Origin: a virus
IMG/VR virus record: IMGVR_UViG_3300025141_000060
Span: 1 to 64,000 of that record
Length of the DNA: 64,000 bases
Reading direction: 5' to 3' (one strand)
Shown: piece by piece, positions 14,501 to 37,533 of the stretch
Position numbering within the stretch: the first letter of the stretch is position 1
Layout of the letters: every line of letters begins with the position of its first letter
Notes under the pieces: generated by a model
What the model was told of the DNA's origin: nothing
Databases searched by the model: none
What the model saw: only the letters and a program-made list of their open reading frames with translations
Made by a program: the position numbers and the translations under genes

Positions 14501-14957
14501 AAACAAAGTTGTCTTCAGAGTCTATCGTTGGGTTATCAAGCCCATAAATACGCGCACTAAAACCGTCAGGGCAATCAGGATGGTTTAATAAATCCCCTGT
14601 AATAGGCATGGATACCTCAGTTATTTCACCCCCTACAGGATTAGTTGGGTCATAAAAAACAATATCAGTATCAGCGGTTGAGATAGGAATAGACTCACAT
14701 ATAACAACAATTACAGTAGAACCTGGAGAATCTTCCGCTGGAATAAACACCCTATCAGGAAGGTCAATAAAAGGCTCCCCTGGGTAGGGTGGTCCCCCTC
14801 CCCCATTTCCAGGAGGGGGAATTTTGTCCCCCTCCAATTCGCCACCTGGAACCTCAGGTTGGTCAACAAAAGTAACCCCTGGGGGCAGCCCCCCAGGAGG
14901 CTCTTCATTTCCACCTTCTCCTGGTTGCGCTGTAGTACAATCTGAAAAGCGAACCAT
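11511..14957 (-). CDS. Large virion structural protein, unknown function
   Basis: 1148 aa at the end of the baseplate/fibre operon; Pro/Gly-rich termini and an acidic, beta-rich N-terminal half. Confidence 0.6.
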   Translation of the reverse strand: MVRFSDCTTAQPGEGGNEEPPGGLPPGVTFVDQPEVPGGELEGDKIPPPGNGGGGPPYPGEPFIDLPDRVFIPAEDSPGSTVIVVICESIPISTADTDIVFYDPTNPVGGEITEVSMPITGDLLNHPDCPDGFSARIYGLDNPTIDSEDNFVYNPTIEVTIPTSPEAQSFYAANTGLLDSLLIGSPNSPLFEVSWLVSFPFDAGDEYNEWYRTQEYISVPATIVDVDVPEAEEPVITYKGDLIVQYNTPVEKEVIHTLTPETWFLGDYEITDTPTLTPPPAYEYAGYTDDNFNMQPGGTLQARSTIIDLEGIGPSSPQLGLRIPIAPKPGFSGDLDQIQIGIPLDLVDFVGGNPGYDEGEAVTITTNDSSLESIYTLQPTDWPAGSEVEHIWVRDSKGNPPTYDGGSETYGWTGYSYNGVESDNSTGNIIFRPLENSFDTGTNPVAVDIQVGDGGGGVHTYTLTVLLSGGAGGSPENFTTITNGLAGTKIKVPKSLSSKQPVTSSRRTFVSLEAPGKRAYHRSVPVEISPQAEARKRQTITYSNGITNPNYTFYSASKQIKSLGLPFVKKSIFGTVVDETVKGILDVNAGSEDSDYLYSAFTHKKLKNSLSDNIKTSLEGKLSLAGAPLENAFISSMAQGLIRNEIYFSEEDFVALSQEDLSTTSIEKTNKLGVDNYNALNLILQNCVSINPNDYGVVLKNKLINWKPLSEDLNKNIIFSTSEGVDTPVYIPNSDKITVFDSTGTSHTLEMQNGDFFLADTVGGDDRLTVHSDLEKAKVLGPEVISQASVLAGEDFHMRLDCSSDISDLVEYNVDTTSARADYYFLKLNKDTIEDLPNGVSNGDTLFSRKTKAVYDYTTTGIDEYVKNNAFPNMVVYLRHDDMLFNHLEKTKTGTLTWKDLTLNNFSNTPDNLILIRQLPQHILIIPSDRTENVFSHKRSKLVAFNTRRATLRVSPFTRKNKNQDFKPVYLKTEYTSTDSINFDLDIENNIIYQEKVKYVFDTTAVNAIKKYTEGTESLPRKVLPTGKALAEINKIKTVYSLTSRDSITIYDLYSRLEPSTYRSFGFDQEVGYFFRARLAQNLITEDKTVNETYFVPVKEISNISNASPVLLLDNAEAPKISAKRAPISTPTPSPGGPPDPGGFNPTA

Positions 14958-14968
14958 TAGTATCTTCC

Positions 14969-20687: not shown

Positions 20688-21275
20688 TTAGAAATTAATA
20701 GTCCACTTAAATAAAAGTGCAAAGTTGCTAGTTTTTTTCAAACCAGTAAAAGGTCGATAAGCTACCAAAATTGGTGCTATAGGTGATACTCCTCTAGGGT
20801 TTCTCAAAAACAACCCAATCTCATCTAGATTAGTATCCAAACCATTAGCTGTATATCTATCTAAAATTAAATTAAATCTAACAGAAGTAGGGGCTACTTT
20901 TTGAATATTAGAAAAGGGGATTCTCACAAAACCCTCAGTGCTTGCTTTGATATCCCTATTTTGTATAGGCATAAGATCTTCAAGTAAAACCTCACTGCCA
21001 GCGGTTAGATATTCAGAGGTAGCTCCTCCTGTTAAAGGGGTATTAAGCTTATAGCTAGAAGTTCCATAATTGTCAGTATCGCCGCCAGTACCTACTTGAA
21101 AATTCAAAATTTGAAAATCAGAGATTGCTCCTGCTCCAGAACCCGCAAAAAGGTGTGAAAGACCTACCCCCATCCCAGAAGTAATTACATTTTTTTCCGA
21201 GAAATGGACTTCCTCAGTCCCATCCTCAAATACTTTTACAACTTCTAAATATCCTTTTGGTTTAAATTTTTCCAT
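20688..21275 (-). CDS. Baseplate/tail-fibre adaptor protein (fibre N-terminal-domain-like)
   Basis: G-x-LEVVKV...NVITSG...ANG...DEIGLF...LVAY...KKTSNFALLFKWTINF, a pattern typical of fibre-attachment domains. Confidence 0.65.
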   Translation of the reverse strand: MEKFKPKGYLEVVKVFEDGTEEVHFSEKNVITSGMGVGLSHLFAGSGAGAISDFQILNFQVGTGGDTDNYGTSSYKLNTPLTGGATSEYLTAGSEVLLEDLMPIQNRDIKASTEGFVRIPFSNIQKVAPTSVRFNLILDRYTANGLDTNLDEIGLFLRNPRGVSPIAPILVAYRPFTGLKKTSNFALLFKWTINF

Positions 21276-24200
21276 TATTCCACTGGGTCATCACCCATAC
21301 TGCCATCAGAAGGCGAACTAAATATAGTGTTAGGTACTACCCTTGTATTATAAAAACGATTAAATCCTTGATGTAACGCATCAAAAATCCTTGCTAAGTT
21401 CCAATAGTGTACACTATTATCTAGTTGTCCACCATTAGCATTGCCATTATTTATACCCCCTTGTGCTACGGGCAATTGAATAGCAGAGACAATTAAAGAA
21501 CTAGCTATATGATTCGCATAAACTCCTTTATTTTCTTCTAAAATAAGATCATTTAGTTCGTACAAATCAACCCCACTAAAATCTACAAAGCTCTGTAGAT
21601 GATACATTTCTTCATACCATTTCCCAAAACCTTGCGTTAAAGCAGTTTGAATTTGATTACCATTTTCATCAAGAACATAATCTCCTGCCGCATCCGTTTC
21701 CCAAACAAGATCACCTACATCATGAGCAAAATTAGATCCCAACCCTACCTTGCCCGAACTAGGTCTTATTAGTTTCCATACACCACCGCTAGTATCGGGA
21801 ATAGCTTCTTTAGATTCTATTGTTATAGCCACATCGGGCGCATCATTAATATTTAAATAATTTATAGTCGGAGTCCATCTAGATGGAATATATCCAATAA
21901 AATCGTCTGGGACTAGTCTCAGTGTCAATGCTTGCCTACGTCTTCTAGGAGTTGTGGGCTGAGGGGTGTATCCACCTCGCATCCCACCCAACATCTCGGG
22001 TGGGCAAAGGACACTGCTTGTAAATGATCCGTGCATTTTTTGATCGCCTGTACTATTACCTATAGGGAAGAAAGCTTCACCCCAAGAATACTGTCTTGCA
22101 TGACTTGAGGCATCGGTTACACCTTTAAGAACATTATAAAAAGAAATCGAATCAGAAGGTATATTAAGAGGGTCTCTCGCAGGCAAAGTCGTCGCCCCTG
22201 CTATATCAGCAATAGTCGCTACAATATCCGTTAAATCAATCATAGCATGCGAGCTTACGCCTGCGGAAACTCCTGCACCACTAACAAACATTGGGACAAG
22301 CATACCTCTGTCATAAAGAGTTGCTTTAAACCCATTTGCGGTGTCGTTTTCTCCTCCCCGTCTAACGGCAGAAGGTGATAACCCAGAGCAATAAGCACCT
22401 AAGTTAAGCATCTTATCGTAAGTGGCCCCTAAACCCCCTGAGCCTGTGTAACTCCCACCCAAACTACTTGCATACCCAAGACCAATAGAAGAGGCATACG
22501 CTGCTCTCCGTCCTATATCAGGGCCTAATGCTCCATTATCGGAAGTTATAATAAAAACTGTATTCGATTTTTTCGTTTCATCCAAACCTTGTAAGAAAGA
22601 ACTTAGAGTTGAATCAAAGTTTTCTAGCATAGCATTAACTGTAACCCAAGTAGAAGACGCTGAATCCGTTGCTCCTACGCCTGCCTCTAATAAGGTATGC
22701 TGATTTATAGAGGACAACCCACTATTATATATGCCTCCTGAAGGGGGCCATGTATACGGAGTGTGTGGTATGTTGGGCGAAACATACATGAAAAAGGGCT
22801 CTTGGGCTGTATTAAAATAAGCACTAGCAGCCGAGAAGATGTAGTTTGTAGTATAAGAACTTGCGTCCCCTTGCCCGTACTCAACCTCGTCCGCAGACTG
22901 CTTAAAGCTTACATAATTGGAGTCAGAAACGGTATAAGTATCAGCAGTGGGAACACCTTCCTTCGTTGGTATCCCTGGTTTGGCGACAAAATAATTAACA
23001 TATCCCATATTTTTACCACCAGTATAGTACGAAGTTGATCCATTGTTAGGCCAATCATCTGGCTCAATAAACGCACCACTATTAGGATTAAGTCCAGGTA
23101 TTGGATCAGCATCCAAATTAGAGAAAGTAGCTAAATAATCATCCCAGTAACCCTTTAAAGCAATGTGTGACCAACCATCACCTTTCCTAGTCGGGCTATT
23201 ATCTTCACAATAAACAATATCATCTTCCCATATAGATAAGTGCCATTTACCAAACATAGCACACTGATAATCAATATCAGGTCTCTTTAAAAAGTTTCCT
23301 ATGACAGGAGTAGTTGTTATAGTATTCACTCCCCCCAATCCGTCCTCAACCTGATTAGTTAAGTTTTCAAGATCTCCGGTCTTATTTAAAAACCTAAACC
23401 CAGAATTCAGGCCCTTTAAACCACCTCGCGTCCTTCTTGCCGAACTTGGGACAATTCCTATCCCAGGACCCCAGAACCCACGACCTGTGCCTCCGAAATT
23501 TTTAGTACTAAAATTATATCTTCCTGTAAGTAAAGCTGCTCTGGTGGGAGCGCAGGCTGGTTGCGCCCTAACATTAAACATTTGCATTCCAGCAGCAGCA
23601 ATTGCACTTAAGGTAGGGGTATAAGGATATAAACTACTTCCATTAACAGGATCATCTAAAACACTAAACGGGGTGGCGGCTGTATGGTTATCATTCTGTA
23701 TTTCGTAAGGATTAATAGCATCGTAGTTTCCTAAATGATCCATCCCTACATCATCTATCATAATAAGAACAACATTCTTTCGATCACCTCCAGGCGTAGT
23801 TTCCGAACTCTCCTCATCTACGATAAACTTTAATTGCCAATCAATAACTAAAGAAAAATCGCTTGTTTTTGTTATTCCTGATCCATCTGCTAACTGTTTA
23901 TATGCCACTAAAACTGATTGATCTTTTTTTATATTAGCCTTTCCATCTCTAATAAATAAACCAAATTCTGTGATAGGCACATTATTCAAATTATTTGCCA
24001 TCTCTTCTGTTAACGTCAATCTATAGTGTACCACTCCATCTATAACTTTAGTGGAATGAGAATCAGGTAAAACGGCAAACACCCCCTCATCATACTGAGT
24101 AGCGAAAGCAGCATCAAAATTTGAAGGATGATACTTGAGAATTTCGTGAGTATTAATCCGAATCTCTGAGTCTTTTCCATAATCATCTTCAAGCATTAAA

Positions 24201-24442
24201 GGATTATTGAGAGTACTTATATATTTTGCTGTGCCTGCTTCAACATGATCATCTGGGTTTAGTCTGCCTAAACCAACTTGAAAATAGCCTACGAGATGAT
24301 CTGAAAGATCAGTGGATCCCGTATCCGTAAAGATGTTGCAAAGCCCAACACCAAGTCCATCGGTAAGAATGTTATGATCTTTACATACACACTCTTCTGT
24401 ACCATCCTTAAAAACTTTAGTAATTTCTACTGATCCTTTCAT
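21275..24442 (-). CDS. Fibre-adaptor domain (aa 1-~207) fused to formylglycine-dependent sulfatase (family S1)
   Basis: N-terminus paralogous to 20688-21275. Then KNVVLIMIDDVG, TPTL, CAPTRAALLTGRY, GKWHL, PFFMYVSPNIPHTP, NTVFIITSDNG, GFKATLYDRGMLVPM, DIVATIADIAG. Confidence 0.9.
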   Translation of the reverse strand: MKGSVEITKVFKDGTEECVCKDHNILTDGLGVGLCNIFTDTGSTDLSDHLVGYFQVGLGRLNPDDHVEAGTAKYISTLNNPLMLEDDYGKDSEIRINTHEILKYHPSNFDAAFATQYDEGVFAVLPDSHSTKVIDGVVHYRLTLTEEMANNLNNVPITEFGLFIRDGKANIKKDQSVLVAYKQLADGSGITKTSDFSLVIDWQLKFIVDEESSETTPGGDRKNVVLIMIDDVGMDHLGNYDAINPYEIQNDNHTAATPFSVLDDPVNGSSLYPYTPTLSAIAAAGMQMFNVRAQPACAPTRAALLTGRYNFSTKNFGGTGRGFWGPGIGIVPSSARRTRGGLKGLNSGFRFLNKTGDLENLTNQVEDGLGGVNTITTTPVIGNFLKRPDIDYQCAMFGKWHLSIWEDDIVYCEDNSPTRKGDGWSHIALKGYWDDYLATFSNLDADPIPGLNPNSGAFIEPDDWPNNGSTSYYTGGKNMGYVNYFVAKPGIPTKEGVPTADTYTVSDSNYVSFKQSADEVEYGQGDASSYTTNYIFSAASAYFNTAQEPFFMYVSPNIPHTPYTWPPSGGIYNSGLSSINQHTLLEAGVGATDSASSTWVTVNAMLENFDSTLSSFLQGLDETKKSNTVFIITSDNGALGPDIGRRAAYASSIGLGYASSLGGSYTGSGGLGATYDKMLNLGAYCSGLSPSAVRRGGENDTANGFKATLYDRGMLVPMFVSGAGVSAGVSSHAMIDLTDIVATIADIAGATTLPARDPLNIPSDSISFYNVLKGVTDASSHARQYSWGEAFFPIGNSTGDQKMHGSFTSSVLCPPEMLGGMRGGYTPQPTTPRRRRQALTLRLVPDDFIGYIPSRWTPTINYLNINDAPDVAITIESKEAIPDTSGGVWKLIRPSSGKVGLGSNFAHDVGDLVWETDAAGDYVLDENGNQIQTALTQGFGKWYEEMYHLQSFVDFSGVDLYELNDLILEENKGVYANHIASSLIVSAIQLPVAQGGINNGNANGGQLDNSVHYWNLARIFDALHQGFNRFYNTRVVPNTIFSSPSDGSMGDDPVE

Positions 24443-26292
24443 ACTGTCCCTATAAAGTTAAGCTTCCAAACAATTGTTAGATCGGAGTACTGGTCCGCCC
24501 CAGCAACGGTCCCCGCATCTTTTATAGCACACAAATTTTTAGTTAAACTCTTTTCTGCAAATAACTTATATACTATTTTATTATAGCCTGCCCCAAATTT
24601 AAGGGGGAAACTTGGTAAGGCTTTTGGTTGTCCATCAAGTCGAGTAGTGGATAAGGTTTTATCTAAATCAAGTGTCCACAAGCCTAACTTATATATACCA
24701 CCATACATATTAGCTAACCCTAAATCACCTGATGATATTGTACAAATACAGGATAATTCACTCCCCCCAATAGCTGAAAAATCAGCGTCTGCTGAGACAA
24801 TTAATCCTGATGCTGGGTCAATAATACGGTTAGGATATATTGGTTTTCCACCTTCATCTACATTAGTAAAAGCAGTCGTTGAAGAGGGCATATACGCTCT
24901 AACAAAGCCATCTCTATCCATAGCTCTTACTGAAGACGAGTTGAAAAAGTTATCGTCCCCTGGGCTTTTTGGATAAGTCCCACTAAAATAAATGCTGCTT
25001 GTGCCACCAGTGGAATTTTCAATCTTTGATAACGACGATAAAATTGCATAATCAGTGCCGCTAGTATGGGGATAACACCCTAAAAATATATCTCCATCAA
25101 GCCCCCCTTCCTCAAAAGTTGGGCGCACACCCGACACTTTTTGGTATTTAGTGGCTCCATAGCTTTCCTCTAACTGCCAACCCCACATAAATAGGCTCCC
25201 ACCAGTAGGAGATCCATTGGAAATATTATACCTAACTTCTACTTGATCGCCATTCACAGTATTTGCATCAGTACCCAACCCTTCTAAATACGCATCCAAT
25301 CTATACCAACCAGTAGAAGACGTTTCGGAAACTACAGGAGTAACACTACCTAGTATACCATTTGTGCCTGTTACAAACTCTGGGGGAATATGCTTTCCTG
25401 CTGTTGAATCCCATAGAGAGAAGGTAGCAATATGGTTAACAGCCGTTCCTGTCTTATCTCTTATGTGCATAGTAAATCCAGAAGTTTCATTACCAAATTC
25501 AGGTTGCTTAATATAAAGACTTAGAGTATGGTCTACATTATCATGAAAACTTGTTTTCCATAAATTAACCGAGGATTGTCTTAGGCTGCCTACCGTGTTG
25601 TATGTCGAACTTACATAATAAGCAGATGTTCCGTAGAAGGGGCCTGTATGCGTTCCCGACAAAGTAGCAGTTGCAACATTAGCAGAAGTCCAGTAAGCTA
25701 AAGGAGGGTCACTCCAAGGACCTTCAGTGTAAGACAGAAGATTTGGGTTACTTTGAGAGCCAAGCCTATTTAAATTATGTCCCACCGCATGGGCTCTACC
25801 TTGCATCAACGTAGCTCCCATGTGATGATATTGACCAGACGCTGCATCTATCGCAGCCATTGTGTCAGGCTCTAATTGCTTATCTGTAGGGTTGGGAGCT
25901 AGACCTGGATCTCTTTTGGGATCGTAAGAGGATGTGGTAGAGGCTATATTTTCATTAACAAGAGACACGGCGCGAACTCTATTATCACTTTTAACGGAGC
26001 TTACATACGAATGATACTTAGAACCCACGCTCGTATAATCCGAGACACTGTGGGGATAAAAATGACCATTATTTCTATAAGCATCAGAGCTTTTACCAAA
26101 TGATATTGCCTTTATGGTAAAGTTTGAAGCGTCTGTAACACCTTTAACAGGTGCTACATTAATAGAAGAGGGGGTTGTTAAAAGAGTACAGATGTTCTCA
26201 GAAGCCCCATCGACCCACAAATTGGATTCTTTATGAACTAGTTTTTGATTATCTGTTGCAAAATTTTGATAAATTTCTACGGTACCAAACAT
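24439..26292 (-). CDS. Fibre-adaptor paralog with inserted carbohydrate-binding-like domain
   Basis: Split adaptor motifs (MFGTVEI...NLWVDG; KLGLW...LFAEK...DLTIVWKLNF) around a CBM-like insert (HTLSLYIK, GWYRL, MWGWQLEE...ATKYQ). Confidence 0.6.
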   Translation of the reverse strand: MFGTVEIYQNFATDNQKLVHKESNLWVDGASENICTLLTTPSSINVAPVKGVTDASNFTIKAISFGKSSDAYRNNGHFYPHSVSDYTSVGSKYHSYVSSVKSDNRVRAVSLVNENIASTTSSYDPKRDPGLAPNPTDKQLEPDTMAAIDAASGQYHHMGATLMQGRAHAVGHNLNRLGSQSNPNLLSYTEGPWSDPPLAYWTSANVATATLSGTHTGPFYGTSAYYVSSTYNTVGSLRQSSVNLWKTSFHDNVDHTLSLYIKQPEFGNETSGFTMHIRDKTGTAVNHIATFSLWDSTAGKHIPPEFVTGTNGILGSVTPVVSETSSTGWYRLDAYLEGLGTDANTVNGDQVEVRYNISNGSPTGGSLFMWGWQLEESYGATKYQKVSGVRPTFEEGGLDGDIFLGCYPHTSGTDYAILSSLSKIENSTGGTSSIYFSGTYPKSPGDDNFFNSSSVRAMDRDGFVRAYMPSSTTAFTNVDEGGKPIYPNRIIDPASGLIVSADADFSAIGGSELSCICTISSGDLGLANMYGGIYKLGLWTLDLDKTLSTTRLDGQPKALPSFPLKFGAGYNKIVYKLFAEKSLTKNLCAIKDAGTVAGADQYSDLTIVWKLNFIGTV

Positions 26293-29200
26293 TTAATTAT
26301 CAACCTCCAACTGAGTATAATTTCCATAAGTTCCATCCTCACCAGTCCCCACGGGGTCTGGGTGATTTCTATAAGAAAGCCTACTTCCACCACTAGCACA
26401 ATGTACAGCAGAAGAATCAGACCAGACACGAGTATTAAATCCCTTCCTTGTTGCTGCTTTCCCTAGTTTATTAAAGTACCTAAATAAATGTAATAAATCA
26501 ATCGGCTCTATAGATTTATACCCTTTCACTGATTTTCCTATATTGGTTCCTTCTATAGACCCCGATAAAGTTAAAACCCGTGCGCTTTCTGGTTCCTGTG
26601 AGAAATTCTCGGGCCTTAAAATCCTCTTACCCAGGCTAAAGTTTATTGGACCTGAATACTCTAACCCACTATTATCGTAAAATTTAATACCTTTATAAAG
26701 ATTGGCCTTAAAAACAGAATAGGGCGCAGATGATTTAACTAAAGTTAGCTTTTTTAAACTCGAAAGATCTTTCTCATAAGTATAGACCTCGTCATTACTA
26801 TCTTTATATAATTTCCTACCTACTAAAACCTCTTCGTTTTCATATATAGTAAGCATATTTGTCTGCGCTGAGTCGTAACTAATTACATTTGCTATTTCTC
26901 CTGTAGCAGCATTGCCTCCATTATTTGAGGGTGTGGGATTAAGTTGGTTGTGCCCTAATCTAAATACACGAGACTGTTCGTATCGCCTAAAATCCCCAGC
27001 CCTAGTTGCAGCATATAATCCATACCCCCAAGTAAGTAGTTTGCAAGGAGTGTGCAGGATAGCTTCTCGCTGATTATTGCCTACTGGAAGGTCTTCAGGG
27101 AGTAACCCATCAAACCTATCGTTATACGCCTGCACAAAACATCTAAGCCCCTTATTTTGTACAGCATCTATTCCTAAGGTGGCATTTCCAGCATTCATCT
27201 CAAATGCATCATAAGGAATAGTTACCCTGACCTTATACCAGGACACTTTATCTGCGTTAGGGTATAGGGTAGTCCAAGGAACAACAATTTCTTCAACAGA
27301 AGCAGCATCATCGCCCGTATAAGAATGTCCGTTGGTTAGAATAGAGCTTGTATAGGCCCCTGCCCCCCAATAGGGAGAGGCAACAGGCTCTCCTAATTTA
27401 AGTACTAATCTTGTGTAACTATTATTACTTCCTATAGGCGCAATCGTGACCATCGCTGATGTGGCATAGTTATCTTGAAAAGATTCGTCTCCCTTAGCTT
27501 TTCCTCTAAGATAAACACAAAAACTATATGGTTGCCCTTGTATTAATTTATTTCGTTCAACATCTCGATAAACGGACAAAGGAGGGAAAGTTATACCTCC
27601 CGCCTCTGAAAAACTATTATATTGTTCGTCCGATACACCCCAAACATTTGTATTAGGGTGAGCGCGGCTTCTTCCAGCCTGGAGTTGGAAGAATGATCTT
27701 GCTGCCCCAACCATCCCTGTTGGGTCTAAAACAGTTGGAAGAAGGGGGTCCACCCCTGCTGGTACATACTCCCAATTATCTTCATCCCCTAACGCATCTA
27801 TATCTAAGAAAACATTATCGGATTCTGTTATAGTAGGTTTAACTCTCTTACTAGTAAAATCTATCTCAATGGGTTCTCCAATAGAAAAACCCACAATCCA
27901 ACCAGAAAAAGGGTTATTACCTGTATAATTTTCTAAATCACTATAAAAGAATCTATCATCTTCTTTAGAATATCCTAATGGATTAGTGTTTCCAGGTAAT
28001 AGTGTATTGAGTTCCAAGAATGTTTTTGGTGTTGAGACCATATGTTGTTCTATGCACGAGTGCCCTGGTCTAGCTAATGCTAATAATGGAGAACCCAACA
28101 AGGACCCTCGCTGGTGTGTATGGAAATAAGGCCAAACCGCTAAACCCCCTCCAAAACCCAAACTGGTTGGGTTTTGGCTGATCTCTTCTCTTTTGCCTTG
28201 AGGTATATAATCTGACCATTGGTTATAGGAGTGGAAGCCCTTTCTGGCTACCCAATAAGCTGTATGAAGATCACCGTCGTTCGCTCCGCCAGGGGCATGA
28301 TTCTCACCAAAACCACTAGGCCATTTTGTCATAGTAGAATTACATATTCCTGTGTATGGAATTTTGCCCATCAATCCATCATCTCCTACATCATCCCCAT
28401 GCTCTGAATAGAAGTTAAGAATCGCCCCACCTGGAAAAAACTCACCGCTATTGGGGTTTCTATAGCTATTCCAGTCAGGTGCTCCAATAACTGTCCACAA
28501 CTCACTAGCGTAACTCATGGGTCCACAATCACCCCCTGGATTCTCACAAACCGCTAAAATATTAGGAAGATCCCCAACAGAGGTTCTAAAGAGATCATAG
28601 GTAAGGTCCCCAGCTATATCTGTACCTACAGTAGTTGAGGATTTGGTTAATGCTAGAGGGCTTCCATCTGGCATACGTAATTCAATCTCCTGTGGAGCAT
28701 CTTGCTGCAAAGTTAAATCAGGAATAACGGCTTCATAAGGTACTTGAGCGGCATCGTTAAGTGTTTTATCTACTAAACTTATGTCATCAAAAACAACAAA
28801 TCTTTTTTCGGAATTTAGGTTGGGATATTGGAATAACTCTAAAATATAATCTTGCGATAGATCTGAATCAAAAATGTTCGCTCTATGAAGTTGAACGTGA
28901 CGCCCGTTATATATGCTGGAAAGCGAGGAATCAGCATTATAATAAGTTCCATACTCAAAAGGAACTGGAGTTTTTTGGTTTTTTGTATGGAACTTAAGCT
29001 TTACGGACTGCTTATCCTCTTCTGTTATATACCTAAGTAGTGTATTATTATCACTGATAACGTCACACTGAGTATCTTGAATCTGTATATTAGTTTCTTC
29101 CTTTCCTAAGAAAGTATGTGTATAGTTATTTAATATATTGGAAATACCTGAAGCAGCATTATTTATATTTGAAACTTTTTCCATCTTCCACTCCCCATTA

Positions 29201-32200
29201 GGAGCCCAAAAGAAAACCACAGAATCACCGTTATTAGTTTTTTCAACTTTAGTTCTAAGAACCGCACCAATGCTTCCTCCCCCTAAAATCGAAGAATCTA
29301 ACTTACCCGTAAAAAAGTTAACAGTTAACTCAAAATCATGATCAGGAATAAGTATATTTTTTTCCATCTCTGTGTAGCCAGACAAATCGAATTTTATTCT
29401 AGGTAAGCCTGCTCCTCTTGTTCGCATATAAACACACGGATTCTTTATTAGATAATTATCAAACGTAGAATTTACAGTCTTTTGGTCTGAATCAAAATTT
29501 AATATAGCAAAATCAGTAGCTATAGAACCTAAATTCAATCTATCAGATGAAGAAGTGTCAATAAAAGAAATACCGCTCAAGAAGTGAGAGGCAACAAATT
29601 CAGGATTACCGTAGTAAGGGGTGTTTGCATTTTGCACAGACGAAACACCTACCTCACCGTCAAGAAGTGCGGCACCAGAAACATTTAATTGTATATAAAA
29701 AGGATTCTGAATTTTTGTAGTTATAAGGTTTGTTGCTGGGGTGGAATCAGGCAAAAGTATCTCAGGATCTATTGCTGAACCATCAATAGAAAAATCAGAA
29801 TTATAATAAATGGGTCCGTATGTATGAGATAAAATCGTAGGACCTCCTTGCTTAACAGTAACAAGCTGATTTTCAGGCAACGAGCTTCCATCAAGTGCAG
29901 AAAGAAAATATTTATTATATGTGTTGTATATCGTATGAATCCCATTAGCGTTTCTTCTTCTAAGACTAAACTCTCTCTTATCGAGCTTAGGGGATAAATA
30001 TTTATCGAACCCAACATCCTCTATCATATTAGCAAAAGACCTTGGTACATCTTTCCAAATCGAAGAAGCAGAAAATAGGTTATAGTTAAGTTTATAAGTC
30101 TCATCAGCAATACCTTCTTTCTTCAACTCATGAAATTTAAACAATGTATAGATCTCTTCTGGTAGCGTATCCCTCCTAACAAACTGATCACAAGAGGAAA
30201 AAGCAAGTGAGTCATAGTTTCTTGATAAGAAAGCACTACTAACATTTAAATTAAAGTAAGAATCATTAGATGCAGAGCCTGCGCAATCTTTTGAATACAC
30301 CCCACTAAGGTTTTCTGGAGTTGCAGGAACTAAACCAAATGAAGAAGGATTCCAACCTAAAGGAAGAAAATCTAGTATAGAACTTGTATTATTATAGAAA
30401 GTAGGCATATTACGTCCACCTCTGTCAAACCATCCTTTTTGTTCTAAAGTGTTATGAAAATCTCTTCTTCTTAAGGATTTTCTTTTTACTGGTTGTCCTA
30501 TATTGGTAGCTGTTGGGGGCACTATCTCAATAGTATTGACAACCGAAGATACAATGTTATTAGAATATTTGGCTTGTTCTCTAGTGAATACGGGTAACTT
30601 AGCATGTTCGATGGTGCTTTGGGAATCATCAAAACCATTATATTTCTCTTCTCCTAATGCAAACCCTGTAATTCTATCGTAGATACCTGACGCAGAAAAG
30701 TTATTAAGCATTCCTGAGACTCCACAAACATCTTGCCCCCTAGCGCCAACCTCACCTACGTCTTTACGCGGAACAATAATACTAGGACATATATAATCAA
30801 TACCGCTTGCATACTCCGCTGCTTTTAAAACAACTCTTGTTCTAGGAATTGCTTTAGCAGGCACAAAATCATCCATTATAGACAAAGATTGAAGTATCTC
30901 TGCATTGCTGTACTGCCCAGAGGAGTCTTGAAATAAAATACTGGAGAAATCGCCCGAACATACCGTAAAATCAAAAGTTGAGGATTTCCCATTCCACAAA
31001 CTTAAAGCATCATAATCTTGGTATACTTTATTATCAATAATACTATCGTAATTTGGAGGTAGCTGTACGGAGGAGGTAAAGAAGACATACCCATTATCTA
31101 AATATAAATCAGTACGATCATTCCCAGATAAGATATAATTATTGGTATAATCATAGAAGCTGTTTGTAAAATTAACATCAATACAGAATCGCTCTAATTC
31201 AGATTTGTAAAAATGAAGGAGTTCGTCAGTTACAGCACAATTTCTAAAAAACTTTTCATCATCCCAAGGTGGGACAGGTGTAGTACGCCCTCTGTAATGA
31301 AATCTAAAATTATCATCGCCTTTAATAGCTAATTTTTTTGAGTATAGTTTGGAATAATACTCTCCTGTGTACCAAGTCCCCTCCCAGTTAACAATAGGCC
31401 CAAGCCAACCTCGCCCGTCCTCAGTTATATTAAGTCTAAAAGGCTCATTTCTGATAAAGAATAGATACGGATAGGCTTCTACGGCATTACTTATAATGCT
31501 GTCAACAGCCGCTCTAATATTTTGGTCTTTATTATTTGAACTATAGGTTTGTGGATCAATACCATAAGAAATAGCGGTATCAATACTGTATGTTTTTGGA
31601 TTAAACATATCAGTCTCAGTTATTAGTAAATAATAAAGTAATTGAGGAATATAGGACTCAAACATTTCTGATATTGCGCCACTAACATCAATAGGATTAT
31701 TTACAATAATGGTATCAAGTGCATCAATTAACCCTTGTTTAGTTCCTTTTTTTCTATAAAGGGATGCAGCATTTCTTATTTGATTCCTCCATGATGCAGG
31801 ATTATTTCCATAGAGTTTCCACCCTAATAAGCTGGCGAGGTATGGAAGGTACTCAGGAGGACAATTTTCAATAGATCCTAATGTTTCTAAAGATTCTACT
31901 TGATTGTCAATATCTCTTAAAGAATAAGAAAGCCCTCGTAAAAATTTATGAAAGGGACCTTTAGGTTCTGTGCTTTGTAATTCGTAATTTGAAGAGCCTA
32001 AACCAGCTTCTATAGCATTTTTTACTACTTCATCTTCCCTGTCAATATAAAGCGGGGAATAAATAACATCAATTAGAGTTTTTAGCTTATCAAGGTTTTG
32101 GGTCCCACTTGTATACGATCCAGTTCCTGACTGAAAACTCCCAGGAAGCATCTTAGCGTCTAAAGAGCTAAAATTAGAGAAGTTAGTCCAAAGATATTCT

Positions 32201-32796
32201 TGATAATCTTTAATGCCGTCATTTATTAAATACGTTGTATTTTTATAAAGGTTCTTAACAATAGAACTAGCTATCAATGATGATGGAGAAGACACAGGAC
32301 CGCTAGTATTTAAAAAATACAACCAACTTAGATTTGATATAAGGTACGCATGCGTACCTGAAGTCGTTGTTGCATAGTTTGCGGACGTATCAGAAAGCAA
32401 AGTACTAGAATTTAATGTTATTTTTGGGAGAAGAGTACCACTCAAAAAAGTAAGAAATTCAGAGGAGGTACCATAGTCCGAATACTTATAACCCAACGGA
32501 GTTAATATGTTCTGTTGGAAGTCATTAGAAGTAATGTCTGTTAGCTTATTTTGTTTTACAAAGTACTGACTAAACCCGCTTGGGGTATTTATTGCACTTA
32601 AAGTATTTGATTCAGATAGAGCACTAATATTTAATGTCTGTGCTATTTTATTGATTGATGCTAAATGGCTATTAATGATTAAGTCTGTAAGCTTAACCTG
32701 CGAGCCGCTTAAAGCGAGATCATCTTCCAGATACAAGTCTGGAGTTACTATCTTTACTGCATCTACAAAGTTTAGTTTTGAATACTTTTTTGCCAT
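26293..32796 (-). CDS. Giant baseplate wedge protein (gp7 / P2 gpI-like) with extra domains
   Basis: CPPEYLPYLASLLGW...WRNQIRNAASLYRKKGTKQGL is the P2 gpI-type motif; follows gp6-like gene; 2167 aa. Confidence 0.75.
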   Translation of the reverse strand: MAKKYSKLNFVDAVKIVTPDLYLEDDLALSGSQVKLTDLIINSHLASINKIAQTLNISALSESNTLSAINTPSGFSQYFVKQNKLTDITSNDFQQNILTPLGYKYSDYGTSSEFLTFLSGTLLPKITLNSSTLLSDTSANYATTTSGTHAYLISNLSWLYFLNTSGPVSSPSSLIASSIVKNLYKNTTYLINDGIKDYQEYLWTNFSNFSSLDAKMLPGSFQSGTGSYTSGTQNLDKLKTLIDVIYSPLYIDREDEVVKNAIEAGLGSSNYELQSTEPKGPFHKFLRGLSYSLRDIDNQVESLETLGSIENCPPEYLPYLASLLGWKLYGNNPASWRNQIRNAASLYRKKGTKQGLIDALDTIIVNNPIDVSGAISEMFESYIPQLLYYLLITETDMFNPKTYSIDTAISYGIDPQTYSSNNKDQNIRAAVDSIISNAVEAYPYLFFIRNEPFRLNITEDGRGWLGPIVNWEGTWYTGEYYSKLYSKKLAIKGDDNFRFHYRGRTTPVPPWDDEKFFRNCAVTDELLHFYKSELERFCIDVNFTNSFYDYTNNYILSGNDRTDLYLDNGYVFFTSSVQLPPNYDSIIDNKVYQDYDALSLWNGKSSTFDFTVCSGDFSSILFQDSSGQYSNAEILQSLSIMDDFVPAKAIPRTRVVLKAAEYASGIDYICPSIIVPRKDVGEVGARGQDVCGVSGMLNNFSASGIYDRITGFALGEEKYNGFDDSQSTIEHAKLPVFTREQAKYSNNIVSSVVNTIEIVPPTATNIGQPVKRKSLRRRDFHNTLEQKGWFDRGGRNMPTFYNNTSSILDFLPLGWNPSSFGLVPATPENLSGVYSKDCAGSASNDSYFNLNVSSAFLSRNYDSLAFSSCDQFVRRDTLPEEIYTLFKFHELKKEGIADETYKLNYNLFSASSIWKDVPRSFANMIEDVGFDKYLSPKLDKREFSLRRRNANGIHTIYNTYNKYFLSALDGSSLPENQLVTVKQGGPTILSHTYGPIYYNSDFSIDGSAIDPEILLPDSTPATNLITTKIQNPFYIQLNVSGAALLDGEVGVSSVQNANTPYYGNPEFVASHFLSGISFIDTSSSDRLNLGSIATDFAILNFDSDQKTVNSTFDNYLIKNPCVYMRTRGAGLPRIKFDLSGYTEMEKNILIPDHDFELTVNFFTGKLDSSILGGGSIGAVLRTKVEKTNNGDSVVFFWAPNGEWKMEKVSNINNAASGISNILNNYTHTFLGKEETNIQIQDTQCDVISDNNTLLRYITEEDKQSVKLKFHTKNQKTPVPFEYGTYYNADSSLSSIYNGRHVQLHRANIFDSDLSQDYILELFQYPNLNSEKRFVVFDDISLVDKTLNDAAQVPYEAVIPDLTLQQDAPQEIELRMPDGSPLALTKSSTTVGTDIAGDLTYDLFRTSVGDLPNILAVCENPGGDCGPMSYASELWTVIGAPDWNSYRNPNSGEFFPGGAILNFYSEHGDDVGDDGLMGKIPYTGICNSTMTKWPSGFGENHAPGGANDGDLHTAYWVARKGFHSYNQWSDYIPQGKREEISQNPTSLGFGGGLAVWPYFHTHQRGSLLGSPLLALARPGHSCIEQHMVSTPKTFLELNTLLPGNTNPLGYSKEDDRFFYSDLENYTGNNPFSGWIVGFSIGEPIEIDFTSKRVKPTITESDNVFLDIDALGDEDNWEYVPAGVDPLLPTVLDPTGMVGAARSFFQLQAGRSRAHPNTNVWGVSDEQYNSFSEAGGITFPPLSVYRDVERNKLIQGQPYSFCVYLRGKAKGDESFQDNYATSAMVTIAPIGSNNSYTRLVLKLGEPVASPYWGAGAYTSSILTNGHSYTGDDAASVEEIVVPWTTLYPNADKVSWYKVRVTIPYDAFEMNAGNATLGIDAVQNKGLRCFVQAYNDRFDGLLPEDLPVGNNQREAILHTPCKLLTWGYGLYAATRAGDFRRYEQSRVFRLGHNQLNPTPSNNGGNAATGEIANVISYDSAQTNMLTIYENEEVLVGRKLYKDSNDEVYTYEKDLSSLKKLTLVKSSAPYSVFKANLYKGIKFYDNSGLEYSGPINFSLGKRILRPENFSQEPESARVLTLSGSIEGTNIGKSVKGYKSIEPIDLLHLFRYFNKLGKAATRKGFNTRVWSDSSAVHCASGGSRLSYRNHPDPVGTGEDGTYGNYTQLEVDN

Positions 32797-34409
32797 TAGA
32801 TAAAGGTTATGTTTATAGTTACATTATTTAATTGAACTACCTCATTAAAGTCTATCGAAATAGCGTCAGAGATATTATCAATTGTTGAGTAACGTACATT
32901 TGTAAGATCAAATATCTTTCTATTTAATTCCTGAGGAACAAAAGCGTCCCCAAAACCAAATCTAGAGTAGGAAAAGAAATTAGTTATAATATTAGATGCT
33001 TCTTGTTTTACAGATTCTTCTTTATCACTTAAAGAAGAATCAACGAATAATGTAACTATAAGATCTAATGTTCTTATTAATCCATCCACAACGACAATCT
33101 CATCGGTAAGCATCTTCTTGTTCTTTATAGCTGAAAGAAGATTTGCTTTATATTCTATTGTAGCCTTCTGAAGTTGCGTTTCAGTCGCCTTTTGTAAAAC
33201 AAACAGGTCAATAATATTAGCTGAAGAGTATGCTTTTCGTGTTGAAGCAGTTCCTATCGCTGCACCCCCTGAAGGGCTACGATACCTAGAAACATACGAA
33301 GCGAAGTCTCCTAAAGTAACTAACCGATCTTGTTGTTTAAACACTAAAGGTCCATTTACCTTAGCGTTTTCAACAGTTTCCGCGTCAACACCTCCTGTTA
33401 TTACACTTGTATTTGTTAATGTTCCCGCTCCTGCATTTTTGGTTACTATAGGGGCGTTAATAATAGAGCCGAGCAAATTGCCGCGACTTCCTCCCCCAAC
33501 TCTATAAAGAACTCGATACGAAGAAGAGTTTGGTGGTGCAGCACCTACGTTGCCATCACCAAACCGAACCAAGCCATTGTAATCTTCATCATAAATAACT
33601 TCAAAAATTTTATTAGTACTTCCTGACGCAGAATAAAGATTACCTACCTGTGTGTATGTTCCTGATAAAGAATCAGAAGAATCTATATAAATTTGAACAC
33701 TATTTTCAATAATAGGTCCTTGTGTTAAAGAAATAGTCTTAAATACTTGAGTGGTATCAAATGTACCCACTTCTTCAACTAATGCCCCCTCTAATAATGC
33801 TAGATTATTCCACGATATATTTTCTTCACCCTCAGAGCTAGAGCGGGATAATGTAATCTCTGAGGTATTACTGCCTAAATTTTGTATTTTTCCCGCAACA
33901 ACAGGGTATAATGTATAAGTTACCTGACCTCCATCTTGAGGAGATGAAAGCGTAATAATTCTACTGTCTGCTTCTACAATTGGATCTGCATCTGTAGATG
34001 CTGTATCGAGTGATATTCTCGCGTTTCCCCCCGCGCTGGTGGGGCCTTTCATTCGTATACCTATAAGCTCTAACAGCTTTCGAACATTTCTTCTACTTCT
34101 AGCGGTGGGTAAAAAGTTTTCATTCGCTAAAGCATCTGCTTTAAACGATAAAACAGCACCCATATACGAAATCAGTTCAGCAAACATTACACCAAAATCA
34201 GACTCACTAAAATTTTGATAGTCCTCTGGGTATACAGCTTGCATATAATTAAATAAAGAATCCCTTAAACTACCGAAATCCGTAGCGGCATAGTTTATTA
34301 AAGAATCTTTGTTTTCAAAGTTTGCCCCCTGCTGAATTAATTTTTGGAAATCTGACGAAGCAGTTGTGAAAGGTATTGTTGTAGGAAGATTATAATTTGA
34401 TGTACTCAT
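32796..34409 (-). CDS. gp6: Baseplate wedge subunit (gp6 / P2 gpJ-like)
   Basis: NYAATDFGSLR, ENFLPTA, VRFGDG, YRVGGGSRGN, GGVDAET, QDRLVTLGDF. Confidence 0.9.
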   Translation of the reverse strand: MSTSNYNLPTTIPFTTASSDFQKLIQQGANFENKDSLINYAATDFGSLRDSLFNYMQAVYPEDYQNFSESDFGVMFAELISYMGAVLSFKADALANENFLPTARSRRNVRKLLELIGIRMKGPTSAGGNARISLDTASTDADPIVEADSRIITLSSPQDGGQVTYTLYPVVAGKIQNLGSNTSEITLSRSSSEGEENISWNNLALLEGALVEEVGTFDTTQVFKTISLTQGPIIENSVQIYIDSSDSLSGTYTQVGNLYSASGSTNKIFEVIYDEDYNGLVRFGDGNVGAAPPNSSSYRVLYRVGGGSRGNLLGSIINAPIVTKNAGAGTLTNTSVITGGVDAETVENAKVNGPLVFKQQDRLVTLGDFASYVSRYRSPSGGAAIGTASTRKAYSSANIIDLFVLQKATETQLQKATIEYKANLLSAIKNKKMLTDEIVVVDGLIRTLDLIVTLFVDSSLSDKEESVKQEASNIITNFFSYSRFGFGDAFVPQELNRKIFDLTNVRYSTIDNISDAISIDFNEVVQLNNVTINITFI

Positions 34410-34870
34410 AATGATATAGATAATTCGCTTTGTTCTTCTGATATTCTAGAGGCTACTAGAAGCCTAATCTTTAGTCCTGGTAGCCCAAATCCTTGAGCTT
34501 TATCTGATTTTAAAATATCTAGTCTCAATATTCTAACAGTAGGCAGGTAATTACTGACTCCTCCAACTATCTCCTTTTTCATACTAATTATGAGATCCTC
34601 TGTTATGGGCTCAAAAAGAAACCTTTTTAAAGATAGTCCAAAGTTAGGAAGCATAACCCGCTCCCCTCGTTCTGTTTTAATGAATTGTCTAAGCTCACTC
34701 TTAACCAGTTCAAAGCCTTTTGTCTTAACAAAGATTCCTTTAGCAGAATTAGTTTTATCATATAAAGGATATCGAACTCCAAAAATAGCCTCAGTAGAAA
34801 CTGCATTTATTATTTCATCAGTTACTGTTGTCGCAGGGGGTACACCAAAAATATTTGTATTAGTAATCAT
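34406..34870 (-). CDS. gp25: Baseplate wedge / sheath initiator (gp25-like)
   Basis: TERGERVMLPNFGLSLKRFLFEP, YLPTV motif. Confidence 0.9.
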   Translation of the reverse strand: MITNTNIFGVPPATTVTDEIINAVSTEAIFGVRYPLYDKTNSAKGIFVKTKGFELVKSELRQFIKTERGERVMLPNFGLSLKRFLFEPITEDLIISMKKEIVGGVSNYLPTVRILRLDILKSDKAQGFGLPGLKIRLLVASRISEEQSELSISL

Positions 34871-37533
34871 GTTGCTATATTTTTATAAAATCCTTTTTGA
34901 GCATTGTAGTTTTGAAGAACTTCCTTATTAGTTAGGGGCCTAGAATAAAACTTTAAACTTCCTACGAACCCGTTTAAGCCGCTTGTGAGTCCATGCCTCA
35001 TCCCCATGAAGCCACCGACTTTGCTTGAATTGATTGGGTACCCGTCTGTCCAACCTCCTCCCACAATCCATGGAGTGAAATAAGTATCATTTAAAGGGCC
35101 ATTATTAAAAACAGTAGTACCTATATTTTGAGTAACCGTAGCTGAAGAATAATAAAAACTACTAGTCTCGGAATCCTTTGGGGAAATAAAGGTAGGTAGT
35201 CTTGGGGCTTGCCCTGGATTACCCCCTAAAACTTTAGATAATGATGAAGTTGTCATTTTTACGCCATCTAAATAAACAATACATTCATTATTATCAATAT
35301 TAAAAGACATATGCAAGTGACTAAAGCTACCTGAGACATCTGTGAACTTCTTTCCACCTACACTCAAATTATCTCTAATTGTTAATTTATTATAAGTTAA
35401 ACTGTCATTAGAGCAGTTAGTATCTGGAACAAACTCAACGGAACTGCTATTAAAAGACATTGTAGGAGCAATAAAAAAGCAACTAGATGCGGTGGTAGCA
35501 GAAACATGCACACCGTTATTGGCACCAGGATCTAAATTGGAGCCAGGAATTATATAGGAATCCTCATAAATAACAGGATCTCTACTAAAACCAATTAATA
35601 AGCCTTTAGTAGTTTCTGATCCACCTGAATTATATAAACTACTAACATCAGGAACTGATTGCTCTCCCCCCGTATTCTCATTACCTAATAGGATTTTATA
35701 ATAATTATAATCTCCCCACGCACCTGCGGTCAACGGACGGAAAGCGTCTGACCCTATTTCCTTAGAAGTAGCTGATGTACCATAATTTGGGATATGCAAC
35801 CAACAATCAATACTACACCCACTTGGATTATAAAAAAGGTTCTGCATCTCCGTTGTAGGAGGAAGTCTTAAATAATTTGGTGACTTAGTTAATTTAAAGT
35901 TATTAATTTTCCACCTCGCTACGCCTCCTAGATAAGGTATACCAACACCAGACGTAAAGGCTGTTGCAACATTGCCCACTAATTGCGAGTTACCATGTGT
36001 TCCTAAAACAGCACAATTCACCACGTTATATTGATCCGAATCTGGAGAAACTACATCAGGCTTCAAGAAGTTATAAATCGCAAACAGCCCAGAACTCTCA
36101 ATGCTGTCCGTTAAAGAAATAGCGGGTGCGGCAGTTGAAGAAACAGAAGGACTGAATACAACAGAACCTTTCCCTATAGGAGGAACGACTAGAGGGTCAA
36201 CTAAAACTCTAGAGGTAACACCATAATTAGTAACAAACAGAGGTTTGATTGGTAGAACCACTCCTTCAACATCACCCGAACCAAAAGTTAAATTTTGTTG
36301 TTTATCTAAAGCAACACTTAAATTTATAGAGCTTAAGAAAGAAAAATCATTAACGGGAACATCACCTACAGCATACGCTTGTTCAGCGCCAAACAAGTCA
36401 GGAGCCTTTACCGCCACCTCTATTTGTTTTTTTCTCTTTTTAATCTTTGTATCATAAGCATCGGTAATAGAGTTCAAATTTAATCTATGATTCACTACCA
36501 AGGCGGAGTCTTCTATGTAGCCGCCATTCAACAGTTCCGTAATTTCATTAATTATTAGTTCTACCTGCTTTGTTTTTTGTCCAAGCAAAACATTCAATAA
36601 ATGATCAGCACTGTAATAATCATCTAAAGTAGATGAATCATCAATAACATTTAAATCGAAAATAGTATCTACATATTTGTTTAATACGTCAGTAGAAACT
36701 AAGGTGCCTTTTCCCCCTAGACTTGGGAAGTGGTCCATCTTCCATTTTTCACTATTTAAAACAAACCCCACATCAGAAGCAGACGGTATAGGTTTTCCGT
36801 TATACAGCCGGTTCTGGGAGTCATAGTACATTCCATCCTCTGATAAAATAAATAAACCATTCTTGGAGACAGGAGGCCCAAACACTAATCTAAAGATAGG
36901 ATCTTCTTCCGCTGCCTCGACGCTAATAGCTTGCTGTCGCTCGTATAGAATTACTCCAATATTCTGTATTAAAGTATTACACTTATCTGAAAACTCGGTG
37001 GCTTCTTCTACTTGTTGTCGCGCTAAACCTAAAGCAGCTACCCTAGCATTTTCAGTATACTGATCGGAGTGCCCACCACCAACACCCCCAGTCCCCGTCA
37101 TAGGCGCGGGTCCTGTGCTATTAAGCCAATTTTCATAGTCTTGAAGGCATCCTAATACCTCATTATACATTGCTTCTCCTTGATCAATTAAATCTTGAAA
37201 GGCTGATATAGCACCTGCCGCGCCTGCTGCCGCATTCAAAAACCCTAAATCAATCCCAAATTTACTTGAGTCGGAGAACAAGGCGAGCTTCCCTGTGTCT
37301 ACGTCATAATCGAGGATCCCCATGTCCGCAAAAAGGCCATTAACAACGCCTGCAATTGCCGCTCGGGCAGCGGCTTGACCCTCGGCTGCTGCCTTAGCCA
37401 TGCCGTTTAGAGCACCAGAATCAATAAGATTTAGCGCACCAACAGCTAAATCTAGCATGCATGTGGGGATACCAAAAGCTGTATTTAAACTAGCTACGGG
37501 GTTTGTAAAAAATTGTGGGTTAAAAGTTGCCAT
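34867..37533 (-). CDS. Baseplate-associated protein with C-terminal LamG/concanavalin-like domain
   Basis: SIDCWL, HLHMSF...IVYLDGVK, GFVGSLKFYSRPLTNKEVLQNYNA; helical N-terminal half; lies between spike and gp25. Confidence 0.7.
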   Translation of the reverse strand: MATFNPQFFTNPVASLNTAFGIPTCMLDLAVGALNLIDSGALNGMAKAAAEGQAAARAAIAGVVNGLFADMGILDYDVDTGKLALFSDSSKFGIDLGFLNAAAGAAGAISAFQDLIDQGEAMYNEVLGCLQDYENWLNSTGPAPMTGTGGVGGGHSDQYTENARVAALGLARQQVEEATEFSDKCNTLIQNIGVILYERQQAISVEAAEEDPIFRLVFGPPVSKNGLFILSEDGMYYDSQNRLYNGKPIPSASDVGFVLNSEKWKMDHFPSLGGKGTLVSTDVLNKYVDTIFDLNVIDDSSTLDDYYSADHLLNVLLGQKTKQVELIINEITELLNGGYIEDSALVVNHRLNLNSITDAYDTKIKKRKKQIEVAVKAPDLFGAEQAYAVGDVPVNDFSFLSSINLSVALDKQQNLTFGSGDVEGVVLPIKPLFVTNYGVTSRVLVDPLVVPPIGKGSVVFSPSVSSTAAPAISLTDSIESSGLFAIYNFLKPDVVSPDSDQYNVVNCAVLGTHGNSQLVGNVATAFTSGVGIPYLGGVARWKINNFKLTKSPNYLRLPPTTEMQNLFYNPSGCSIDCWLHIPNYGTSATSKEIGSDAFRPLTAGAWGDYNYYKILLGNENTGGEQSVPDVSSLYNSGGSETTKGLLIGFSRDPVIYEDSYIIPGSNLDPGANNGVHVSATTASSCFFIAPTMSFNSSSVEFVPDTNCSNDSLTYNKLTIRDNLSVGGKKFTDVSGSFSHLHMSFNIDNNECIVYLDGVKMTTSSLSKVLGGNPGQAPRLPTFISPKDSETSSFYYSSATVTQNIGTTVFNNGPLNDTYFTPWIVGGGWTDGYPINSSKVGGFMGMRHGLTSGLNGFVGSLKFYSRPLTNKEVLQNYNAQKGFYKNIAT

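Follow-up and report, generated by a model that had tools for sequence, protein, structure and literature searches.

A predicted formylglycine-dependent sulfatase fused to an anchor domain in the baseplate operon of a marine myovirus

The enzymes known from virions cut glycan backbones, peptides or acetyl esters. The tailspike gp63.1 of phage G7C, for example, is an O-antigen deacetylase, and modular tailspikes share conserved N-terminal anchors. No published virion or tail sulfatase was found in our full-text literature searches, subscription journals being mostly outside their coverage. On the structural side, phiKZ gp139 forms dimers that make up a band by which the platform for fibre attachment is held to the baseplate wedges (PMC13250141). 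Here we describe a protein of 1055 amino acids (aa) encoded by the viral record IMGVR_UViG_3300025141_000060 of IMG/VR (open reading frame (ORF) 21275-24442, minus strand, open over 1055 codons), in which a predicted family S1, or formylglycine-type, sulfatase follows an N-terminal domain resembling proteins of the baseplate periphery. All numbering refers to the window, that is, the whole stretch of DNA analysed, which comprises the first 64 kb of a 74,990-bp viral contig estimated to be 67% complete. A virion sulfatase, as predicted here, would represent a type of reaction as yet unreported from virus particles.

The protein is composed of an anchor, a linker, a sulfatase domain and a C-terminal extension (Table 1). 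Residues 2-206 align with residues 7-195 of the 195-aa protein encoded by the adjacent gene at 36% identity (BLASTP, E 4e-25), far beyond chance, which bears out the resemblance of the first ~207 residues to the neighbouring stand-alone adaptor proposed in a preliminary description of this DNA. That description had also claimed a full set of catalytic S1 motifs, and each was found at its position: DD at 230-231, C297-A-P-T-R with its Cys codon (Table 1), GKWH at 398-401, PH at 559-560, SDNG at 634-637 and GFKATLY at 704-710. The Pfam Sulfatase model PF00884 matches with an E-value of 9.8e-23 (81 bits, against a cut-off of 25 bits), and a phmmer search of the protein against Protein Data Bank (PDB) chains returned sulfatases only. 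Together, the Pfam, phmmer and BLASTP matches indicate that the pairing of sulfatase and anchor is real and not a chance resemblance. No signal peptide was found in the 1055-aa protein, the N-terminus of which is the anchor domain itself. The sulfatase domain is interrupted by long insertions at ~312-392 and ~403-530. The C-terminal extension has no Pfam match, gave weak leads only in an Atlas search (scores 0.86), and contains residues that are invariant in the family alignment, including R842, S885, G887, G940, E945, Y947, D959, E962 and R1034.

A homologue search covering 5.8 billion proteins returned about 25 full-length homologues (1015-1388 aa, 32-85% identity) from marine and metagenomic sources, all of them with PF00884; below these, scores fall sharply to generic cellular sulfatases (E 1e-13 and worse). 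In the alignment of the 25 homologues D230, D231, P299, T300, R301, K399, H401, D635, N636 and K706 are invariant and H560 is kept in all but one, while position 297 is Cys in 23, Ser in one and Gly in one. The core nucleophile motif, (C/S)-x-P-x-R, is accordingly preserved in 24 of 25 (Cys in 23, Ser in one), and the complete set of ten catalytic residues (D230, D231, C297, R301, K399, H401, H560, D635, N636 and K706) in 23 of 25. The two departures are the homologues P0019 and P0026, one with Gly as nucleophile together with H560N and the other with Ser in the nucleophile position. The former (P0019) is probably catalytically dead, judging from these substitutions. Ser is the other natural precursor of formylglycine, and a Ser-type enzyme would need a radical S-adenosylmethionine (radical-SAM) maturase. 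Two orthologues of 1355-1389 aa (L011:10001-14068 and L012:9424-13593) carry an extra insertion of ~300 aa between the C-x-P-x-R and GKWH blocks.

Structural comparison leads to the same family. A profile of the family matched solved S1 sulfatases in the PDB down to an E-value of 4.6e-23, with the DD, C-x-P-x-R, GKWH, P-H and DNG blocks and the second Lys all aligned. The AlphaFold model of the full-length protein has a mean predicted local distance difference test (pLDDT) score of 66.8, with core strands at 80-93 and low values in the insertions. Searched with Foldseek, it matched carbohydrate sulfatases best, led by PsS1_19B (6psm, E 1.5e-14) and followed by Bacteroides mucin sulfatases, PAS and human ARSA and ARSB, with a probability of 1.00 to many S1 structures; the outcome anticipated for this part of the protein in the preliminary description was thus obtained from both the profile search and the predicted structure. 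By their entry titles, the nearest solved sulfatases belong to several subfamilies (S1_19, S1_16 and S1_15), all at 12-17% identity, and for this reason we assign no SulfAtlas S1 subfamily. Every feature of the S1 family that can be read from sequence is present, and the protein is on these grounds a predicted formylglycine-dependent enzyme.

The protein is under purifying selection: against the closest orthologue (L003, 85% identity), the Nei-Gojobori ratio of nonsynonymous to synonymous substitution rates is 0.10 in the anchor, 0.20 in the sulfatase and 0.31 in the C-terminal extension. No close cellular homologue was found among 185,579 prokaryotic species genomes (one genome each), where the best matches reach ~22-28% identity over long segments with E-values of ~1e-10. 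Since no closer cellular match exists there, the family appears as a divergent S1 branch seen only on viral contigs.

The anchor domain has a wider distribution than the sulfatase. An exhaustive HMMER search with residues 1-210 against 1.84 billion representatives found it in 177 representative clusters, about half of them stand-alone proteins of 185-220 aa and the others proteins of 560-1800 aa that carry it at the N-terminus; in a few clusters the match falls into two stretches, a large insertion dividing the domain. Among 43 long members, Pfam recorded seven BD-FAE, six Abhydrolase_3 and four COesterase matches, all esterase-type alpha/beta hydrolases, along with three further sulfatases and one fn3 domain. 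These observations support the view that the anchor is a reusable module to which, at this genomic position in related phages, other enzymes are joined as cargo.

We compared the model of the 195-aa paralogue (Table 1) with 48,161 PDB representative chains. The five best fold matches are all phage tail or baseplate proteins: a domain within the 953-residue HFTV1 tail chain 9h4p_BD (Z 9.3, root-mean-square deviation (rmsd) 2.2 Å over 125 aa), phiKZ gp139 (Z 7.7, rmsd 3.3 Å over 140 aa, 10% identity; Foldseek probability 0.92-0.97, E 0.015-0.03), the GP4 fibre-tail adaptor (Z 6.4), a baseplate protein of Klebsiella phage KP1 (Z 6.4) and a phi812 baseplate protein (Z 6.3). Foldseek also matched A511 gp105 and a phi812 arm segment to the paralogue, and 43 viral proteins of BFVD match at E <= 1e-3, those few that bear names being tail fibre proteins, with two weaker matches to tail-collar fibre proteins. 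The N-terminal domain is thus predicted to fold like baseplate-periphery and fibre-adaptor proteins of phages, in keeping with the attachment role that the preliminary description had given it; such model-based matches indicate a fold class and a context, not homology. A relationship to T4 gp8, gp9, gp10 or gp11, suggested by gene order, was considered but is not claimed, as none of these was among the 50 best fold matches. In three loci (L124:3686-6127, L125:7180-8394 and L127:7050-7781) a long anchor protein (at least 813 aa) without a Pfam match is encoded in the head-tail joining region, directly after the homologue of window ORF 3443-4168, a placement indicating that the anchor domain is used at more than one position.

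The sulfatase gene sits inside a myovirus baseplate operon (Table 1). On one strand, the genes run in the order gp25-like, J-like, P2-I-like, 617 aa, sulfatase, 195 aa and 1169 aa. The sulfatase gene overlaps the upstream 617-aa gene by ATGA and the downstream 195-aa gene by TAATG, as is usual where the genes of a structural operon are translationally coupled. The window further encodes tail sheath, tail tube, major capsid, prohead protease and baseplate hub proteins, and the T4-type portal and large terminase are encoded in the remainder of the contig.

Table 1. Positions in the window of the parts of the sulfatase protein and of the surrounding baseplate-module genes
Feature	Coordinates	Strand	Basis or remark
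888-aa baseplate-module protein, just upstream of the gp25-like gene	34867..37533	-	35% identity, E 4e-137 to aa 23-902 of the 1708-aa L017 ORF
gp25/gpW-like baseplate wedge protein	34406..34870	-	Pfam GPW_gp25 E 3.7e-8; phrog_261, phrog_43
Baseplate J/gp6-like wedge protein	32796..34409	-	phrog_219 E 2e-34; Pfam Baseplate_J
2167-aa baseplate protein with P2 gpI-like domain	26293..32796	-	Pfam Tail_P2_I E 1.3e-6
617-aa gene, upstream of the sulfatase gene	24439..26292	-	Orthologues of 310-1442 aa at the same position
N-terminal anchor domain, aa 1-206	23825..24442	-	BLASTP to paralogue; pLDDT ~75-85 in full-length model
Acidic Gly/Pro-containing linker, aa 207-221	23780..23824	-	Residues 209-219 pLDDT <50; bounded by aa 206, where the paralogue alignment ends, and by NVVLIMIDD, the first sulfatase block
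Family S1 (formylglycine-type) sulfatase domain, aa 222 to ~790	22073..23779	-	PF00884, Foldseek, family profile
Cys297 codon, predicted formylglycine precursor in C-A-P-T-R-A-A-L-L-T-G-R	23552..23554	-	Read from sequence
C-terminal extension, aa ~791-1055	21275..22072	-	Conserved in family; BLASTP matches in anchor-fused orthologues
Stand-alone anchor paralogue, 195 aa	20688..21275	-	Model pLDDT 95.7
Three large genes (1169, 736 and 1148 aa), downstream of the 195-aa gene	11511-20685	-	Synteny conserved across clade

To place this arrangement in its clade, we compared the window proteins by BLASTP with the ORFs of ~45 related viral loci. A constant frame emerged, in which the gp25-like, J-like, P2-I-like and 617-aa-like genes (the last 310-1442 aa) are followed by a variable slot and then by the stand-alone anchor (185-217 aa), the 1169-aa-like and the 736-aa-like genes; the stand-alone anchor directly precedes the 1169-aa-like gene in every locus that reaches this point. 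The slot holds anchor plus sulfatase in the window and in L003-L012, with a longer variant in L015 (L123, L128 and L133 duplicate three of these anchor-sulfatase records). It holds anchor plus an esterase-like alpha/beta hydrolase in L112, L113 and L119, where the Pfam matches are weak and below cut-off and those of the protein family as a whole are clear. Elsewhere the anchor carries a cargo without a family match (L117, L120, L116/118/126 and L129), the slot contains a second bare anchor (L114, L115, L131 and L132), or it is empty (L111, L121, L122 and L134, and also L013, L017 and L020). A scan of viral contigs with the single esterase-bearing protein P0051 gave no match, and an alignment-based scan recovered the anchor part only.

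The sulfatase module also occurs in two other architectures, in both of which the catalytic residues, Cys included, are intact. In L013, L017 and L020 it forms the C-terminus of a protein of 1708-1717 aa, again with all catalytic residues, the first ~900 residues of which are an orthologue of the 888-aa baseplate-module protein (Table 1). The third form, in L015, consists of the anchor, then 500 aa, then the sulfatase. The sulfatase has thus persisted while diverging to a degree similar to its structural neighbours, and it has been attached to at least two different baseplate-module carriers. In L020 (7196-12519) the fusion is split inside the sulfatase domain into two ORFs of 1117 and 657 aa with a 4-nt overlap, for which a frameshift, an error in sequencing and a true split are possible explanations.

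Because a stand-alone anchor always comes after the cargo gene and gp139 forms dimers, we modelled a complex of residues 1-210 with the 195-aa paralogue. The model scored 0.74, as compared with 0.00 for the best of three controls; this mark is reached by 58 of 80 solved complexes and by two of 110 mismatched pairs, a calibration that is rough only, because the alignments were our own. Between runs, at least 80% of the contacts agree, the partner has a pLDDT of at least 85, and the modelled interface is pseudo-symmetric, with a conserved helix at ~29-51 of both chains. This prediction supports binding between the anchor and the 195-aa paralogue but does not show it.

The S1 mechanism requires that Cys297 be converted to formylglycine, and we therefore looked for a maturation enzyme. 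The preliminary description had noted that the window encodes neither a formylglycine-generating enzyme (FGE) nor an anaerobic sulfatase-maturating enzyme (anSME), and the same holds for the whole 74,990-bp contig (~67% complete), where neither PF03781, for FGE, nor PF04055, for radical-SAM enzymes, was found; both are likewise missing from five related sulfatase-bearing records that are 30-59% complete. The complete 111.6-kb relative L139, which has terminal repeats and an esterase-like cargo, also has no FGE. It does contain, in a region at ~18.4-21.9 kb, a 368-aa radical-SAM/SPASM gene between two glycosyltransferase genes (Gly_transf_sug and Glycos_transf_2), for which no NCBIfam model scored above cut-off and the anaerobic sulfatase maturase model was not among the 25 best. 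Judged by the position of the terminase gene, this region corresponds to the part missing from the sulfatase contig; no homologue of the radical-SAM/SPASM gene was found in the sulfatase-bearing records, which are incomplete. Two B12-binding radical-SAM enzymes of 475 and 598 aa are encoded ~2 kb apart in L138 and L140 (a 67.6-kb relative), the larger being KedN5-like with an E-value of 1.6e-74, below cut-off. The simplest reading is that formylglycine is supplied by a host enzyme, and a phage maturase may lie in the missing third of the genome. In bacteria, FGE and anSME modify substrates that are still unfolded, within the cytoplasm, which makes the maturation of a cytoplasmically assembled virion protein plausible.

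We propose, with a probability of roughly 60%, that the 1055-aa protein is a peripheral baseplate protein of a marine, T4-distant myovirus, an anchored and formylglycine-matured sulfatase that desulfates a surface glycan. Those elements of the preliminary interpretation that are open to computational testing all came out in its favour. That the protein enters the virion, acquires formylglycine and is active as a sulfatase, which substrate it has and what it does in adsorption are what we infer from the evidence above. In this proposal the anchor, of ~206 residues, would dock on the baseplate periphery or fibre platform, probably paired with its stand-alone paralogue, and the flexible linker would let the sulfatase reach the cell surface. 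The protein, having no signal peptide, would fold in the infected cytoplasm, where Cys297 would be converted to formylglycine either by a host enzyme of FGE or anSME type or by a maturase from the missing third of the phage genome. Displayed on the virion, the sulfatase would bind a sulfated glycan, for which capsule, exopolysaccharide, O-antigen and a surrounding sulfated matrix are candidates, and would strip its sulfate esters, leaving the polymer backbone uncut. Its role would be to modify or destroy a receptor, like that of acetyl-esterase tail proteins, and would allow the particle to move through the layer or to commit to infection; the esterase cargo of sister phages would do the same with acetyl groups.

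The virion-borne module could instead bind a sulfated receptor glycan without hydrolysing it, either with the Cys never converted or with turnover irrelevant. The lack of an FGE or radical-SAM gene in the contig and in the five sulfatase-bearing relatives would fit such a role, as would P0019, in which the nucleophile and one catalytic His are gone; Cys-to-Ser and Cys-to-Ala sulfatase mutants still bind substrate in crystals, and mutant-substrate complexes of this kind are among the titles of the PDB entries matched by Foldseek. Binding alone, however, would not need the nucleophile, the metal-binding pairs and the Lys/His pairs, which 23 of 25 homologues retain across 32-85% identity, as do all three architectures, nor does it sit well with the full FGE recognition motif, including L-T-G-[KR], being retained in nearly all homologues. 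The esterase-like cargo in the same slot likewise points to catalytic removal of substituents, and we regard a purely binding role as unlikely. The ester itself could also be a different one, the protein acting as a formylglycine-dependent hydrolase of the same superfamily on a surface polymer that contains, for example, phosphonate monoesters or phosphodiesters. The catalytic residues are the same in phosphonate monoester hydrolases, one of these (4upk) is matched by the family profile at 5.6e-9, and at 12-17% identity to characterised sulfatases the specificity cannot be read from homology; yet carbohydrate and aryl sulfatases account for all of the strongest matches in sequence and fold, at E-values of 1e-23 to 1e-17 as against 1e-9 for the phosphonate hydrolase, which makes this alternative improbable in our view.

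Slightly more improbable still is a soluble accessory enzyme outside the virion, made late and released at lysis, that would free progeny from sulfated debris or feed host metabolism. Stand-alone sulfatases do exist on other viral contigs (L021 and L022), but here the N-terminus is an anchor domain instead of a signal peptide, that anchor has its fold matches among baseplate and fibre-adaptor proteins, translational coupling ties the gene into the baseplate operon, and in different lineages the sulfatase module is fused to two different baseplate-module carriers. Retention of the module together with its presence on two carriers is what would be expected of a virion-borne, host-specific module and is hard to reconcile with a soluble accessory enzyme.

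Several points count against the proposal of an active virion sulfatase. Virion presence, modification of Cys297 and hydrolysis of sulfate esters are predictions. Sulfatases alone do not depolymerise glycans, so that the benefit to adsorption is conjectural. The combination of Gly and H560N in P0019 indicates that a non-catalytic form can persist. The confidence of the full-length model is moderate (mean pLDDT 66.8) and low in the insertions. The anchor-fold matches are middling (Z 6-9, template modelling (TM) scores 0.33-0.47), a best Z of 7-8 being common for models without true relatives. As the two modelled chains are paralogues, the favourable score of their complex may reflect a generic homodimer interface and not a specific pair. 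Lastly, both a sulfated surface and a maturase are assumed for the host.

With regard to that host, the DnaG-type primase, UvsW-like helicase and PD-(D/E)XK nuclease indicate a bacterium. No tRNA genes were found, and the 185,579 species genomes contained no close cellular or prophage homologue that would point to a host. The sulfatase gene is present in marine metagenome runs from several studies, and no RNA run was among those listed as containing it. Neither the sulfatase protein nor its 195-aa paralogue matched a cultured phage (tblastn, phage collection), and the nearest portals of cultured phages are at most 34% identical. As for the neighbouring genes, the first ~47 aa of the 617-aa protein (BLASTP against the sulfatase protein, E 2e-4) and its last ~10 aa (LTIVWKLNF) resemble the anchor domain, which suggests an anchor split by an insertion of ~500 aa. 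The 1169-, 736- and 1148-aa genes farther downstream match no Pfam or PHROG family and probably encode fibre proteins or other distal parts of the tail.

If the proposal is correct, a sulfatase carried by the particle would extend phage adsorption by a new kind of reaction, and a structural virus protein would depend on the maturation of Cys to formylglycine. The exchangeable slot, with its sulfatase, esterase and other cargo, would offer a natural and testable system for the adaptation of marine phages to surface glycan decorations, and its sulfatase version would suggest that in the ocean such phages meet sulfated bacterial envelopes or matrices as receptors or as barriers. The deeply divergent, phage-only S1 branch could moreover yield polymer-active sulfatases of new specificity. 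More tentatively, and at somewhat below even odds, we envision that a whole clade of abundant marine myoviruses displays an active baseplate sulfatase whose nucleophile is made by the formylglycine machinery of the host; adsorption competence would then depend on a host enzyme, sulfated glycans would be a common marine receptor layer, and desulfation or deacetylation by the exchangeable slot would be a determinant of host range.

Compared with described systems, the protein combines features otherwise found apart. With the S1 sulfatases, as represented by PsS1_19B (6psm and 6prm), the mucin sulfatases of B. thetaiotaomicron (7an1, 7oqd and 7p26), PAS (1hdh) and human ARSA, ARSB and GALNS, it shares the alkaline-phosphatase-like fold, the C-x-P-x-R-x-x-x-L-T-G-R motif, the metal ligands D230, D231, D635 and N636 and the pairs K399/H401 and H560/K706. 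Unlike them, it has no signal peptide, is fused to a baseplate anchor and lacks a close cellular homologue; it is only 12-17% identical to the solved members and has long insertions and a C-terminal extension of ~260 aa. With G7C gp63.1 and the modular tailspikes it has in common an N-terminal attachment module joined to an exchangeable C-terminal enzyme and encoded in a tail or baseplate operon, whereas its predicted reaction is desulfation, it needs the conversion of Cys to formylglycine, and its cargo has an alpha/beta sulfatase fold in place of a trimeric right-handed beta-helix. Given this cargo, we do not place it among the classical tailspikes, even if its mode of action may be that of a tail enzyme. 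To phiKZ gp139 (9xpg and 9xqd) and the domain of the HFTV1 chain 9h4p_BD, finally, it bears a resemblance in the predicted fold of its anchor, in a predicted dimer-type interface and in a location in the baseplate gene module, but the sequences have no detectable similarity (10-14% identity), the Z-scores are middling, and gp139 bears no enzyme cargo where the phage protein described here carries a predicted sulfatase.

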